Source: Escherichia virus TH42. Taken from it: DNA of 64,000 bases. A program made the translations under genes and the position numbers. Under the pieces are notes generated by a model. The model saw only the letters and a program-made list of their open reading frames with translations, did not search any database and was not told the DNA's origin. Position 1 is the first letter of the stretch. Each line of letters opens with the position of its first letter. Shown here in pieces: positions 15,905-45,174 of the stretch. Location: the sequence record MT446413.1; one strand, given 5' to 3'.

Positions 15905-15956
15905 GTTAGTTGAGCCAGAATAGCTCACATAGCCCTCTGATACTCACAAGGGCTAT
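15905..15956 (-). repeat. conserved composite RNA element, copy 1 (8-bp hairpin + TCAACTAACC on minus strand)
   Basis: Plus: GGTTAGTTGAG...ATAGCCCT-ctgatactcaca-AGGGCTAT; immediately 3' of gene 15962..16210. Confidence 0.5.
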
Positions 15957-15961
15957 AGATG

Positions 15962-21627: not shown

Positions 21628-21678
21628 GGTTAATTGAGGAACACCCTCACATAGCCCTCTGATAATCACAAGAGCTAT
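21628..21678 (-). repeat. conserved composite RNA element, copy 2
   Basis: Plus: GGTTAATTGAGG...ATAGCCCT-ctgataatcaca-AGAGCTAT; the G-to-A change keeps pairing only in the minus-strand RNA (U-G wobble); 3' of gene 21688..21912. Confidence 0.5.
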
Positions 21679-21687
21679 AAGTCGATG

Positions 21688-39561: not shown

Positions 39562-40308
39562 ATGGCAATGCCTGAAGTTCAGTATCCTATCAATACCTAT
39601 GGCTGGCTTAAAAAGGCTGTGTCACTCTGGGCCGATAGGGATGATGGTGAATTTGTAGATCAAATTCCAAACTTTATTAACTTTGCAGAGAAAGAAATCT
39701 ATCGTAACTTACGAATCCCTCCTCTGGAAAAAGAAGTATATTTAGATATCAAGGATGGTATTGCTTTTATCCCTCCTGACTTTTTAGAAGCACAGTGGAT
39801 TATGAGAGCTTCAAATGGAATGATGTTCAGAGTAACCTCTCCTGAAGAACTTGACTGGTTGAAGAGAAATAACTCAGTCAACCCATCCAATTGGAATCAA
39901 GGGGAAGTTGTTTTTGCTCGTTTAGGTAGTCGGTTTATGTTCTACCCTCTAATTGATGCAGATACTCCTGTTTATCCTGATGATGGAGCACCTGAAATCC
40001 CTGCTGAGAATGCTGTAGTTTTAAGTTATTATGCAGACCCACCGGAGTTCCACTCTGATGAAGATACCAGTGCTATTCTAACTATTGCTCCTGAGCTGCT
40101 TCTATATTTTACTCTGCGTCATGCTTCTTTATTCGTTCAAGATGATAATGGAGTTCAAAAGTGGTCAGCACTTGGTAAAGCAATCCTTGACGAGATTGTG
40201 GAGCAGAGTAAGAAAGCAGAATACTCAGGTTCCCCTCTAGTAATCCCTAATACTATTAGCCGTCTTAATAGCTCACGAGAAGTGTACGGCATTCGTAGAT
40301 ACAGATAA
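39562..40308 (+). CDS. virion structural protein (head-tail joining or tail tube candidate)
   Basis: 248 aa ORF between capsid and tail fibre genes. Confidence 0.45.
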   Translation: MAMPEVQYPINTYGWLKKAVSLWADRDDGEFVDQIPNFINFAEKEIYRNLRIPPLEKEVYLDIKDGIAFIPPDFLEAQWIMRASNGMMFRVTSPEELDWLKRNNSVNPSNWNQGEVVFARLGSRFMFYPLIDADTPVYPDDGAPEIPAENAVVLSYYADPPEFHSDEDTSAILTIAPELLLYFTLRHASLFVQDDNGVQKWSALGKAILDEIVEQSKKAEYSGSPLVIPNTISRLNSSREVYGIRRYR

Positions 40309-40317
40309 GGAGAACAT

Positions 40318-42951
40318 ATGATCGTTTATAACAACCAAGAACCTACTACAGTAAATAATGTAGGCCAATTTGGTGCAACAGAAGGCTCTATCGGAGCCTA
40401 TAAACAAGCAGCTGAGTATGCTGCTGATTCTAAATATTGGGCACTTTTAGCTGAGTCTAAGTTTGGTACAGTTGATGATCTTATTGCTGAAGTAGAGAAA
40501 CTTTATAAGCAAGGTATTCTATTACAGCAAGATATTGAAGATCTGAAACAGGACTTTAAAGATCAAGATGCTCGACTGATGCAACTGATTGCACAGACTA
40601 ACGCAGCTGTTGCTAATGCTAACAACTCTATTGCTTTGATTAACCAAAAACTGATTGAAGTCGATCAGCAACTTGATATCCTGTTGGCTATGAAAGTTAC
40701 AGTGACCACTCTTCCTCCGGGTTCTGAAGCTACTGGTTCTTTCAATAACCAAACTGGTGAAATCAAGCTAGGTATTCCTGAAGGTGAGCCGGGTCGTGAT
40801 GGTTCTGTAACCGACTTAAACACTGCCCCAACGGGGGTTCCAGAAGCAGGGGATATTGGTTTTTATGTTGACCCTGATGACAACAAAGTGTATAAAACCA
40901 GCCTCAGTAATATCGCTAACTTAATCCCTTCTGTTCGTTCTATCAAAGTTAATGATGGTCCAGAACAAACTGGAGATGTAGCCCTTACTCTTGATAAGAA
41001 CGTTGTTGGCCTAGGTAACGTTCTGAACGTTGCTCAATATAGTCGTCAAGAGATTAATGACAAATTCGATAAACCTATTAAAATATATCAAACTAAAGCT
41101 GATGCTGATGCAAATGCTCAATATCGTCAAACAGGCGAATCTGTTATGGTTTGGGAAAACACTCAATATGTTTTCTACACCGTTTCAGCTAATAAAACAC
41201 TAATTCCAGCTAAAACCGAAGGTCGTATTATTACAGTTAACTCACGATCTCCTGACTCATCTGGCAACATTGATATTACTATTCCTACAGGGAACCCTTC
41301 TTTGTATCTCGGTGAGATGGTTATGTTCCCATATGACCCAGCTAAGAATATCTCTTACCCCGGTGTACTACCTGCTGATGGTCGCTTGGTTTCTAAGGAA
41401 AGTGCTTTAGATTTAGGTCCATCTTTGGTCAGTGGCCAATTACCAGTAGTTAGTGAAACTGAATGGCAGTCCGGTGCTAAGCAGTATTTCTCTTGGGGTA
41501 AACTGGCTGATGGTTTTACTGATGCAGACTCTAGCAACTTCATCAGCATCCGACTTCCAGATTGGACTGGTGGGGAAGCTATTCGTGCTCCAGACGCTGA
41601 CAAAGATTCTCAATATGACGGGTCTGTTCAATCTCAGAAACCTTATGTGGTTACTGTTAACAATCAAGCTCCTGATGAAGCTACAGGTAATGTTACTATT
41701 TCTAGAACTACTCTAGGAGCTGCTTCTTCTGGTGCAAACTCAGACATAACCTCTATTACAGGACTTACGACTGCTCTCTCTGTTTCTCAGGGTGGTACAG
41801 GTGGTAAGACAGCAACCGAAGCCCGTGGAAATTTAGGGTTGGATAAGATTGATCAACAGGAATCTGAAACTAAGATTTTATCCCCTGACAAAAGTACTTA
41901 CATGTTTGTAGATAATGCCGGCTGGGGTTGTTATAATAACACAACAGGAACAGTTGCACTTACTGTAGAACGTGGAGGCACTGGAGCTACTGATGCTGCT
42001 ATCGCTAGAACAAATTTAGGCCTTGGCTCAATTTCTACCTTAAGCAACGTCCCTGTTGCTAGTGGTGGTACAGGTGCAACTAATGCAGCTGGAGCAAGAA
42101 CTAATCTTGGATTAGGGAACATCTCTACACTAAATAACGTCCCTGTTGCTAGTGGTGGTACAGGTGCAACTAATGCAGCTGGAGCAAGAACTAATCTTGG
42201 ATTAGGCAACTCAGCCACAATGAACACTGGAACAAATAGTGATAACGTTCTTAAGGTAGGTGATTTTGGTATTGGGAGACCTGATGGTGCTTTAGTTTTT
42301 GATACAACGTCCCAAGACGCCCTTCTTGCATCACTTGGCAACTACGGTCTTAGTGTCTTTAGAAATAACCAACAAATTCCAGCTCCTTGGGACATATGGA
42401 ATTATTCCTCAAACCTTTTCTTTAAGGCAGGTGATACGTACAGTATGATAAGTATCCCATTTGAGAGTGCTGGCAAGATAAAAGTTTTTGGTGGTGCTGA
42501 GGGGCAGGGATGGAAAACTTCGAGGACGGTATACGATACCGTAAATACAACTGTTGACGTCAATGGTTTTATTAAAGCAGCGTCACCAATAGTAAAAGTG
42601 TTTCATGATGGAAGTTTTGAAACAAATGAACAATCAGATGGAGTTAGTGTTAAAAGAATTTCAGCTGGAGTGTATTTAGTTTCAGGATGCCTAGGTCTCA
42701 ATTCAGATGCAGGGTGGGGTGGGGTTAATGGTGGTTTTGAGATACCGTGTGATATTAACAAACAAGCGAAAGTATGGCTTGATTACGAAGTGAAAGAAGA
42801 TGGTTCTATTCTGGTAAAAACTTACCACAGAACACATCCTACTTCTCCCGTCTTTGCTCGTAATGAGATTGAAGGATATTCTGATGGGGACCCTATTGAC
42901 ATACCGAAAGATACTTTCATCTCTGTTCGTATTGAAATGCCATCTAAGTAA
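40318..42951 (+). CDS. tail fibre protein
   Basis: 877 aa; four copies of the phage tail-fibre repeat GGTG-x-T-x-A-x-AR-x-NLGL, two of them near-identical at DNA level. Confidence 0.6.
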   Translation: MIVYNNQEPTTVNNVGQFGATEGSIGAYKQAAEYAADSKYWALLAESKFGTVDDLIAEVEKLYKQGILLQQDIEDLKQDFKDQDARLMQLIAQTNAAVANANNSIALINQKLIEVDQQLDILLAMKVTVTTLPPGSEATGSFNNQTGEIKLGIPEGEPGRDGSVTDLNTAPTGVPEAGDIGFYVDPDDNKVYKTSLSNIANLIPSVRSIKVNDGPEQTGDVALTLDKNVVGLGNVLNVAQYSRQEINDKFDKPIKIYQTKADADANAQYRQTGESVMVWENTQYVFYTVSANKTLIPAKTEGRIITVNSRSPDSSGNIDITIPTGNPSLYLGEMVMFPYDPAKNISYPGVLPADGRLVSKESALDLGPSLVSGQLPVVSETEWQSGAKQYFSWGKLADGFTDADSSNFISIRLPDWTGGEAIRAPDADKDSQYDGSVQSQKPYVVTVNNQAPDEATGNVTISRTTLGAASSGANSDITSITGLTTALSVSQGGTGGKTATEARGNLGLDKIDQQESETKILSPDKSTYMFVDNAGWGCYNNTTGTVALTVERGGTGATDAAIARTNLGLGSISTLSNVPVASGGTGATNAAGARTNLGLGNISTLNNVPVASGGTGATNAAGARTNLGLGNSATMNTGTNSDNVLKVGDFGIGRPDGALVFDTTSQDALLASLGNYGLSVFRNNQQIPAPWDIWNYSSNLFFKAGDTYSMISIPFESAGKIKVFGGAEGQGWKTSRTVYDTVNTTVDVNGFIKAASPIVKVFHDGSFETNEQSDGVSVKRISAGVYLVSGCLGLNSDAGWGGVNGGFEIPCDINKQAKVWLDYEVKEDGSILVKTYHRTHPTSPVFARNEIEGYSDGDPIDIPKDTFISVRIEMPSK
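42050..42210 (+). repeat. near-identical tandem DNA repeat inside tail fibre gene
   Basis: cgtccctgttgctagtggtggtacaggtgcaactaatgcagctggagcaagaactaatcttggattagg occurs twice ~90 nt apart. Confidence 0.5.
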
Positions 42952-42996
42952 AACTAAGAATGCCCTCTCTTCAGAGGGCTTTATGGAGGATTATAA

Positions 42997-45174
42997 ATGT
43001 CTAGAGAGTTAATGCCCAAGTCTGGGATAATGATGCCTCATGTTGTAGTATCACGAGATGCTGCTGTTGTCGGTGTATCTACTGTTGATGGTGCCGCTGG
43101 CGCTATCGACCTAACTAATAAATATTTACAGAAGACTGCAGCTGAAAACACCTATATGACAAAAACTGAAGGTGCTACTAAGGTTTATGTTTCAGACTCT
43201 ATTGCCCCTATTATGGAAGGTGCTCTGTTTAAATCTGATCCTTTTGTAGCTAATGATGTACCATTCCGTGCTGCTGGGGCTAATGGTGTAGAGTCTGTCG
43301 ATATGATTAAAGTTACACCAGAGAACACTATCAAAATCGGTAGCTACGCTTCTTCTGTTCAGGGTGTAGAAGTTCACACTGCTGGTCGTCTTCAGGTTGT
43401 GGATTTGAATGACGGTGGTGTAGAAACTAAATATCCTGTCTACTCAAAACGGTATCGTCCTGAGATTGATGAACTTCCTTTTGCAGCGATCGGTTCATAT
43501 GTCAAGGATTCTAAAGGACGCACTATTGGTGTAACTCGTACTGGTATCAACTCTGATATAACTCAGATGACTCAGAAAGTAACCTTCACACAACCAGTAA
43601 CTGTTGCAGATGCTGTAGGAGATTATGATGCAGTTACCTACCGTCAACTTAAGAATCAGGGTGGTGGTTCTGGTGGTCCTACCATGAGTGGTATCTCCAA
43701 CTTTGGTATTGGTGATTTCCATCTTCGTGATAGTCGTGCTTTCATTCCTGCATTCGAAGTTGTATCCGATGGTCAGCTACTGAATCGTGCTGATTACCCT
43801 GATCTTTGGGCTTATGCCCAGCTGTTAACTCCTATCACAGATGCTGCTTGGTTGGCTGATGCACAGCAACGAGGTAAATATTCAACTGGTGATGGTTCTA
43901 CTACCTTCCGTGTTCCTGATAGGAATGGTGTTCAGAGTGGCTCTCTGAAAGAACTCTTTGCTCGTGGTGATGGTGGTAATAGTAGTAATAATGGAATGGC
44001 TTATGATGCGGCACTTCCTAACATCGTAGGTTACACTGCCCACACTCTTTTAACTGCTGCGAGTAATCAAGGACAGGTTGCTACCGATGGAGCTTTTACC
44101 TCTACAACCTCAACCTCAGGTGTTTGGCCTTTGTCTGGCGGCGGCGGTCTTTATACCAACATTCAGCTTAACGCTAACAACAGTGATGCTACTTATGGTC
44201 GCTACGGAATCACAGCGAATGCTATCCCTCGTAACTTCATTGGTGTTTGGACTATCCGTGCTCATGGTGGGTTTGTAGCAGCTAATACTTCTTGGGCTGT
44301 TATTAACAGTGATACCTCTCGACCTTCAGCTGGTTCAAAAGCGACTGGTGGTTCTATCTTATCTCAGTATAAAATAGGCTCTGATGTAGAAGCTGAGACT
44401 TACTTGAAAACTGATGCTTATATCAACGGAACTTACTACGGAGTTATTGGTGTTATTAACAAAACCAAAGGAGTGACTTCTGAGCTAACCTTTGGTGATG
44501 ATGGCATCCTAAACTCTAACAAATACAGAGCAAGGCAAGTCTCGGGTTTGAGTTGGAATAATACAGGAGTTGAGAAGGGTACTTATGCAATTGAAGATGT
44601 TAACATAGGAACTAACTATAACTTCAACAGTATAATCAGTGCTGCACAATCTTCTAATTCTGGTTACAGAACTTCTACTCATATCGGTCAAATTCATAAT
44701 GACGGTGGCTCTTTTGCTCAATCCTGCTGGCATGTATCAGGAGATGAAACTAACCAATATGGTGTTCGTCTTGCCATCCAACCTAACTATGAAGATATTT
44801 ATTACTACTTCTGGGCACCAGATGTTTCTCGAACCTACACTCTTCAGAAGAATGCTGTCTCTGATGAACGTCTTAAGCGTGACATTTACGATCTTGATGC
44901 GTCTAGGCCTATTGAAATTTTGAAAGGTTTGACTTTCCGTTCCTTTGTCTATAAGGATGATGAAAAGCAGAGAACTCGTCGTGGTGTTATTGCACAGGAG
45001 GCAGAGAAGGTAGAACCTCTGTATGTTAAGACGATTAACTTCTATGACCCTGATGGTAGCAAGAAAGATCAGAAACAGCTGGATACAACTCCTATGCTTC
45101 TTGATACAATGGCGGTAGTTCAAGACCTCCTAAAACGTGTTGAAGAGTTAGAAGCTAAACTGGCTGCTAAGTAA
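42997..45174 (+). CDS. tail fibre/spike with C-terminal intramolecular chaperone (peptidase S74-type) domain
   Basis: 725 aa; C-terminus SDERLKRDIYDL...GVIAQEAEKVEPLYV...coiled coil; terminator follows. Confidence 0.7.
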   Translation: MSRELMPKSGIMMPHVVVSRDAAVVGVSTVDGAAGAIDLTNKYLQKTAAENTYMTKTEGATKVYVSDSIAPIMEGALFKSDPFVANDVPFRAAGANGVESVDMIKVTPENTIKIGSYASSVQGVEVHTAGRLQVVDLNDGGVETKYPVYSKRYRPEIDELPFAAIGSYVKDSKGRTIGVTRTGINSDITQMTQKVTFTQPVTVADAVGDYDAVTYRQLKNQGGGSGGPTMSGISNFGIGDFHLRDSRAFIPAFEVVSDGQLLNRADYPDLWAYAQLLTPITDAAWLADAQQRGKYSTGDGSTTFRVPDRNGVQSGSLKELFARGDGGNSSNNGMAYDAALPNIVGYTAHTLLTAASNQGQVATDGAFTSTTSTSGVWPLSGGGGLYTNIQLNANNSDATYGRYGITANAIPRNFIGVWTIRAHGGFVAANTSWAVINSDTSRPSAGSKATGGSILSQYKIGSDVEAETYLKTDAYINGTYYGVIGVINKTKGVTSELTFGDDGILNSNKYRARQVSGLSWNNTGVEKGTYAIEDVNIGTNYNFNSIISAAQSSNSGYRTSTHIGQIHNDGGSFAQSCWHVSGDETNQYGVRLAIQPNYEDIYYYFWAPDVSRTYTLQKNAVSDERLKRDIYDLDASRPIEILKGLTFRSFVYKDDEKQRTRRGVIAQEAEKVEPLYVKTINFYDPDGSKKDQKQLDTTPMLLDTMAVVQDLLKRVEELEAKLAAK

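Follow-up and report, generated by a model that had tools for sequence, protein, structure and literature searches.

How do two neighbouring segments of one tail fibre gene come to be identical over 71 nucleotides (nt), when repeat units within one such gene normally share only about 60% of their DNA? The question is raised by a locus in Escherichia virus TH42 (sequence record MT446413.1), of which one stretch of 64,000 nt, referred to here as the window, was analysed; positions are those of the window unless gene positions are named. The gene concerned occupies 40318..42951 on the + strand and encodes an 877-amino-acid (aa) homologue of gp12, the proximal long tail fibre protein of phage SU10. 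The best explanation, and one that we consider probable, is that the two segments are units 3 and 4 of a four-unit shaft array in the proximal fibre of a Kuravirus, that unit 3 has undergone gene conversion by unit 4, and that the array as a whole is a spacer of variable length.

A perfect repeat within diverged units

Tandem Repeats Finder (TRF) reported a tandem array at 42046-42210 with a period of 90 nt, 1.8 copies, 98% matches, 0 indels and a score of 323, the sole tandem array in the window at a score of at least 60. An exact-match scan resolved this array into a 71-nt exact direct repeat, 42046-42116 being identical to 42136-42206; the second-longest exact direct repeat in the whole window measures 19 nt. 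Extended to 75 nt (42046-42120 versus 42136-42210), the copies agree at 74 positions, with a single G/C mismatch at 42117/42207 followed by three further matches. The 90-nt period corresponds to 30 codons and is in frame within the open reading frame (ORF) 40318-42951 (+). A separate general repeat search of the window did not return the tandem pair at 42046-42210.

The first copy (42046..42116, +), which is the putative acceptor tract of the conversion, has mismatches on either side, at 42044-42045 and at 42117, and the second copy (42136..42206, +), delimited by TRF and the exact-match scan, would be the donor. Beyond the 71/71 tract, identity amounts to 17/30 in the left flank and to about 6/15 in the right flank, so that the tract has sharp edges inside units that are otherwise diverged.

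The extent of this identity was judged against the units of 12 related genes, namely those of SR02, phiEco32, SU7, SU10, YF01 and NJ01 and six metagenome-derived homologues. Pairing units of the same gene gives 68 pairs in this set, which share 35-56/75 nt, and the adjacent pairs among them 41-54/75 nt, compared with 74/75 for units 3 and 4 of the window. Chance is excluded as the source of the 74/75 match; at a background identity of 0.68, the probability of at least 68 matches in 69 positions is about 1e-10. At the protein level, identical units occur among 120 homologous proteins only in the window protein and in that of Escherichia virus TH34, the next best pair matching at 20/23 aa.

Anatomy of the unit array

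A motif scan identifies four 30-aa units conforming to [VI]P[VI]xxGGTGAxxAAxARxNLGLGxxSTLxN, starting at aa 487, 548, 578 and 608. The array is situated after a conserved N-terminal anchor and shaft of about 490 aa and before an exchangeable C-terminal module. Units 2, 3 and 4 stand in tandem, unit 1 is set apart by an insert of about 39 aa, and the repeat pair corresponds to units 3 and 4. A sequence-only reading of this DNA had described two copies of about 70 nt, about 90 nt apart and in frame, as a repeat unit of a tail fibre gene. Its description of the DNA was accurate, the gene is indeed that of a tail fibre protein, and the pair has turned out to be two units of a protein repeat.

The core of unit 1 (aa 487-508, LSVSQGGTGGKTATEARGNLGL; 41776..41841, +), found by the motif scan, shares 44/75 nt with units 3 and 4 and is followed by the insert in place of a normal tail. 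It contains a 13-nt run, GGTGGTACAGGTG (41791..41803, +), which recurs in unit 3 (42064-42076) and unit 4 (42154-42166) and marks a breakpoint of mosaicism. Homologue comparison defines the insert between units 1 and 2 (aa 509-547, DKIDQQ...WGC...GTVA; 41842..41958, +) as optional; with its conserved WGC motif it is present in most homologues and absent from SU10, HC-25922 and TH34. Unit 2 (aa 548-577, LTVERGGTGATDAAIARTNLGLGSISTLSN; 41959..42048, +) is diverged, sharing 44-45/75 nt with units 3 and 4, and its nearest orthologues are unit 2 of the homologue P0004 and of the homologue P0038. It is followed by unit 3 (aa 578-607, VPVASGGTGATNAAGARTNLGLGNISTLNN; 42049..42138, +) and by unit 4, the last unit (aa 608-637, VPVASGGTGATNAAGARTNLGLGNSATMNT; 42139..42228, +).

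An AlphaFold2 (AF2) model of the monomer, based on 46 aligned sequences, predicts one short 7-residue helix per unit, on the AAxARxN segment, at a predicted local distance difference test score (pLDDT) of 44-60 across the array. The insert is predicted as a small beta domain of five short strands (pLDDT about 82). No Pfam-A family matches the 183-aa array region even at E<=10 and no NCBIfam family matches the array at E<=1; among families, only whole-protein families of PHROG cover the unit. A tblastn search with the array region, its SGANSD lead-in included, retrieved 383 phage records, many of them 105-118 kb Salmonella/Escherichia phages. Weak sequence matches of the unit in the PDB comprise gp92 in 9zd7 (E 2e-4), phiM1 gp47 in 8vbx and R-type pyocin fibres (E 0.02-0.08; 6cl5). 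A fold assignment from these matches was considered and dropped, since none of them is both strong enough and well enough documented for it.

Unit 3 is a chimera of two unit types

Comparison with the units of relatives reveals that unit 3 is a chimera, in which a perfect copy of the unit 4 core is joined to a retained penultimate-unit tail. The 66-nt core of unit 3 best matches the last units of relatives (58/66 for unit 4 of P0002, 57/66 for unit 4 of P0006 and 56/66 for the last unit of P0004), and scores only 45/66 against its positional orthologue, unit 3 of P0002. Its 24-nt tail, GGGAACATCTCTACACTAAATAAC (G-N-I-S-T-L-N-N), matches the unit 3 tail of P0002 and P0006 at 21/24 positions, as opposed to 11/24 for their unit 4 tail. 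Unit 4 itself resembles unit 4 of P0002 in both core (58/66) and tail (20/24), and its tail matches that of unit 2 of SU10 at 21/24. The arrangement of one unit, the insert and three further units (1+insert+3) is common to the window and to the diverged homologues P0002, P0006, P0014 and P0038, the proteins being 71-83% identical. Given a chimeric unit 3 within the same layout as these relatives, the near-identity of the pair is therefore best explained by gene conversion, and not by a new duplication.

The conversion would have been a short-tract, non-reciprocal event of homologous recombination, in which the last-unit core was copied over the penultimate unit. The tract would be no shorter than 71 nt and no longer than about 73 nt, and the array would have kept the same number of units. 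TH34, the only close relative, has the same converted core, and we would place the event in the common ancestor of the window phage and TH34. Exact-pattern scans found no carrier of a 47-nt core in IMG/VR or in JGI metagenome contigs, and a related-locus search of IMG/VR returned phiEco32 and NJ01 only.

Two of the relatives display shorter perfect tracts between units: one of 41 nt in YF01, between units 1 and 3 (gene nt 1480-1520 and 1762-1802), and one of 38 nt in P0014, between units 2 and 3 (gene nt 1687-1724 and 1777-1814). In the remaining nine relatives the longest exact inter-unit run is 9-16 nt. The YF01 and P0014 tracts suggest independent conversion events and, given how sharp they are, exchange between units would therefore be recurrent in this gene family. 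The 71-nt tract provides far more homology for unequal exchange than is found in relatives, and gain or loss of 30-aa units is predicted to be more frequent here; the arrays of relatives, in most of which such runs do not exceed 16 nt, are probably more stable than that of the window lineage.

Unit number varies among relatives

The number of units ranges from 2 to 5 among homologues. SU10 and HC-25922 have two tandem units and no insert (786 aa); P0004 has 1+insert+2 (847 aa); the window and four others have 1+insert+3 (849-878 aa, 877 in the window, the C-terminal module also affecting length); SU7, YF01, P0003 and P0005 have 2+insert+2 (880 aa); and P0010, P0012 and P0013 have 1+insert+4 (882-885 aa). 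In HMMER alignments, SU10 residues 492-503 align twice to the window, once to unit 1 and once to unit 3, and SU10 therefore differs from it by an exact 91-aa register shift from unit 1 to unit 3. Such differences in count would have arisen by misaligned recombination of a similar kind between units, through short shared runs such as GGTGGTACAGGTG.

The closest public record is that of TH34 (MT446407.1), which is 96% identical to the window over its 20-40 kb. Within the fibre genes the two are closer still, gene nt 1-1486 containing 3 mismatches and 42046-44141 a single one, so that the flanks of the array are about 99.9% identical; TH34 is identical to the window over 42046-42283, the next difference falling at 42284. 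The TH34 array is nevertheless 183 nt shorter, one extra converted unit standing where the window has the remainder of unit 1, the insert and unit 2. Its first unit is a hybrid of unit 1 and unit 3 with the junction inside the 13-mer, and similarity to the window breaks at 41803. The loss of the unique insert and of unit 2 cannot be a collapse of repeats, but the number of identical units could be miscounted.

Between 39449 and 39663, where intergenic DNA gives way to the beginning of the adaptor gene, TH34 and the window also differ at 32 positions in a dense patch. Lying beside fibre genes that are about 99.9% identical (40318-44141), compared with 96% over 20-40 kb, the patch suggests a mosaic boundary, and the whole fibre module was possibly exchanged recently.

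The sequence-only reading had proposed that gain or loss of units could change fibre length, and had pointed to comparison with related phages. That comparison does reveal repeat-number variation, with 2, 3, 4 or 5 units and differing protein lengths, and even the nearly identical TH34 has a different array; this part of the proposal stands. The near-identical pair is in itself no evidence that a unit was gained, as unit 3 fits homogenization without a change of number, in a 1+insert+3 layout that is shared with relatives. To speak of a hotspot, or of slippage, would be conjecture from the sequence, the sole close-relative comparison being with an UNVERIFIED TH34 assembly that is broken in the array. 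A literature search on repeat-number variation in tail fibres returned irrelevant papers only.

Alternative origins of the identical pair

The alternative that survives best is a recent tandem duplication, by slippage or unequal crossing-over, that added one 30-aa unit to a 1+insert+2 ancestor. P0004 (847 aa) resembles such an ancestor: it falls short of the window array by exactly one unit and shares with it the insert and a last unit of VPVAS type, and an unequal crossover between a last unit and unit 2 would also yield a hybrid of last-unit core and internal-unit tail. A simple 90-nt duplication, however, predicts 90/90 identity, whereas 74/75 is seen, followed by about 6/15. Moreover, the unit 3 tail GGGAACATCTCTACACTAAATAAC differs from the unit 2 tail of the window at about 9/24 positions and is orthologous to the penultimate tail of P0002 and P0006 (21/24), and a three-unit tandem block therefore predates the event; the 1+insert+3 layout is likewise present in four diverged relatives. 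We regard the addition of a unit, which accounts less well for the tail of unit 3, as unlikely, though the most serious of the competing accounts. Its plainest form, slippage duplication of 90 nt, was rejected, since the match breaks off abruptly after 75 nt and the tail of unit 3 has its orthologues in penultimate tails of relatives.

The pair might instead be an artefact of assembly or sequencing, a stretch mis-joined or duplicated in the source genome. The locus is evidently hard to assemble in TH34, whose record is cut inside the array with a 530-nt overlap of its ends. In the window, however, both copies have distinct unique flanks within 20 nt on each side, which ordinary reads would resolve; the ORF stays intact and in frame across the repeat; and the independently sequenced TH34 is identical over 42046-42283. 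An artefact is thus very improbable.

Less credible still is that selection on protein sequence or codon usage holds the units identical with no recombination. The motif is strongly conserved in protein across many fibre proteins, but between phages, orthologous last-unit cores whose peptides are the same or almost so differ at 8-10/66 nt, and selection for a peptide is therefore no explanation for 71 identical nt. Adjacent units in the 12 relatives have diverged to 41-54/75, and 0 synonymous differences over 71 nt with sharp borders are not expected from such selection. A functional element at the DNA or RNA level inside the gene, such as a regulatory site, a structured RNA or a recoding signal, can be set aside as the least probable of all: no support for it was found, Rfam gave no match at E<=1 on either strand of 41500-42700, the antisense ORF 41931-42341 belongs to no PHROG family, and the repeat is in register with the protein repeat while the other copies are diverged in DNA. 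Across relatives it is the peptide, and not the DNA, that is conserved.

Several points count against conversion of unit 3 by unit 4, or temper what is built on it. We infer the conversion from its footprint in the sequence and have not seen the recombination directly, and the tail evidence for it comprises 24 nt only. Several of the relatives are Logan short-read assemblies, in which repeats might in principle have been collapsed. The TH34 record is flagged UNVERIFIED, and its ends overlap by about 530 nt inside the array, with one indel that truncates the ORF, called as a 585-aa protein (P0035). The overlap and indel have the look of an artefact that the repeat array produced during assembly, and the unit count of TH34 could itself be an assembly error. 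The difference between the window and TH34 may reflect either two events from a window-like array or one double crossover from a TH34-like array. Finally, an effect of unit number on fibre length would have to be read from a protein whose SU10 counterpart is built only at residues 1-90, and from an AF2 model of the array at pLDDT 44-60.

Units coincide with module junctions

Breakpoints of mosaicism are located at the units. Nine megablast matches to other Kuraviruses that cover the N-terminal part alone end at gene nt 1484-1489 (41801-41806), at the 13-mer of unit 1, and the megablast similarity to phiEco32 begins at gene nt 1734 (42051), at the start of the unit 3 core. For Dhillonvirus siphophages, similarity to their fibre genes sets in at about 42253, just past unit 4. 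Among homologues, three unrelated C-terminal modules follow the last unit: a PF25670 type, a 'GALSNTPANTG' type and a PF13884 chaperone type. The window has the first of these, with a C-terminal domain at aa 743-876 (42544..42945, +; PF25670 Phage_tail_C_2, Pfam E=9e-61) within the swappable module that starts just past unit 4. The array may therefore be given two roles: as a variable-length shaft spacer, in which the number of units would govern how long or how flexible the proximal segment of the fibre is, and as a supply of homology for the exchange of C-terminal fibre modules.

The gene and its neighbourhood

By its homologies, 40318-42951 is the proximal long tail fibre gene of a Kuravirus, a phiEco32/SU10-like podovirus of the Gordonclarkvirinae. 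The 877-aa product, a homologue of SU10 gp12 and phiEco32 gp14, matches the PHROG family phrog_10305, 'tail fiber protein', with E=0. A phmmer search against the PDB matched chain 7z47_D (SU10 'putative tail fiber', 786 aa) with a whole-sequence E=0 and 1489 bits, in two continuous aligned stretches that pair query residues 1-503 and 583-877 with SU10 gp12 residues 1-503 and 492-786. The homology includes the N-terminal adaptor-binding region (residues 1-90). SU10 gp12 is the long tail fibre proximal protein and is attached to the adaptor; residues 1-90 alone were built by cryo-electron microscopy (cryo-EM) (Siborova et al. 2022, PMC9509320), and a trimeric long-tail-fibre component in the virion has been shown by cryo-EM for SU10 only (PMC9509320). 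A 100% identical protein, P0001, is encoded on a 77,284-bp NCBI contig.

The gene is preceded by an SU10-type adaptor gene (39562-40308; PF24175 SU10_adaptor) and followed by that of a 725-aa, SU10 gp13-like distal long-tail-fibre protein with a C-terminal intramolecular chaperone domain (42997..45174, +; phrog_6921 E=5e-264, PF13884). The order of adaptor, proximal fibre and distal fibre is the same in phiEco32, SU7, SU10 and YF01.

Upstream of the array, aa 253-471 (41074-41730) match residues 242-452 of PDB 8hqz_d with E=2e-43, a 1076-residue chain named 'L-shaped tail fiber assembly'. This part of the shaft is therefore a module common to a podovirus fibre protein and an L-shaped tail fibre protein.

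Elsewhere in the window, the 19-nt exact stretch mentioned above is held by a 34-nt direct repeat, 94% identical between 15924-15957 and 21646-21679, each copy of which has an internal hairpin, CATAGCCCT...AGGGCTATA. Situated in a block of minus-strand genes, the two copies could represent a terminator or regulatory hairpin that occurs twice. A search of window 1-64000 by ARAGORN for tRNA and tmRNA genes gave none.

Discussion

The nearest known counterpart of this gene is its orthologue SU10 gp12/phiEco32 gp14, which occupies the same place between the adaptor and distal fibre genes. SU10 gp12 has two units and no insert in 786 aa, whereas the window has four units and an insert of about 39 aa in 877 aa; neighbouring units in SU10 and phiEco32 are diverged (43-47/69 nt), whereas the window has two identical units. 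The array region is not resolved in the SU10 structures.

A second comparison is with g37/g38, the distal fibre and adhesin genes of T-even phages, for which duplications of small adhesin domains and recombination between conserved motifs were described by Tetart et al. (1996, 1998), as cited in PMC3157838. As far as that citing account goes, the T-even genes and the window gene are alike in using short conserved motifs as sites of intragenic duplication and module exchange. The motifs themselves differ, being His boxes and glycine-rich motifs in the T-even phages and GGTGA...NLGLG in the window, and so do the protein and the phage family. According to the same account, the T4 duplications concern the receptor-binding tip, where an expansion of host range was shown experimentally, whereas the window array belongs to a proximal fibre subunit and is known from sequence.

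R-type pyocin fibres have Rod and Shaft domains of a helix-plus-turn build (Buth et al. 2018, PMC6116203; PDB 6cl5, 6cl6, 6ct8), and it has been noted that the repeating structure allows fibre length to be adjusted and that fibres evolve by motif duplication (PMC6116203). The link to the window is a weak one-unit match to 'LPLARGGLGANTAAGARNNIG' (E 0.02-0.08, below significance), together with the one short helix that AF2 predicts for each window unit. The pyocin repeat is detectable in structure only, whereas that of the window is an obvious 30-aa sequence repeat.

Concerted evolution by gene conversion is known in tandem repeat arrays of surface proteins. The window case fits this pattern, with a sharp perfect tract in units that are about 60% identical and with chimeric units, and nothing specific sets it apart. 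What it illustrates is no new kind of system but ordinary intragenic recombination, in a phage fibre gene built of repeats.

One could go further and see in the homogenized pair a high-frequency length switch, such that every lysate would contain variants with one unit more or less, or with a deletion from unit 1 to unit 3 like those of SU10 and TH34, which would differ in how well they reach receptors through O-antigen or capsule layers of varying thickness. We consider this doubtful; if true, it would make the array a phage-side contingency locus for host range.

On a practical level, the array flags a spot where short-read Kuravirus assemblies break or miscount, the public TH34 record being cut and frameshifted there, and it flags a possible genetic instability in therapeutic or engineered phages of this group. 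The GGTG...NLGLG units, above all the 13-mer at 41791-41803, are natural splice points for fibre engineering, being the places at which nature has joined a conserved anchor to different C-terminal modules and altered the length of the shaft. The practical value is modest, and the pair of identical units is best seen as a clean, small example of concerted evolution within a phage structural gene.

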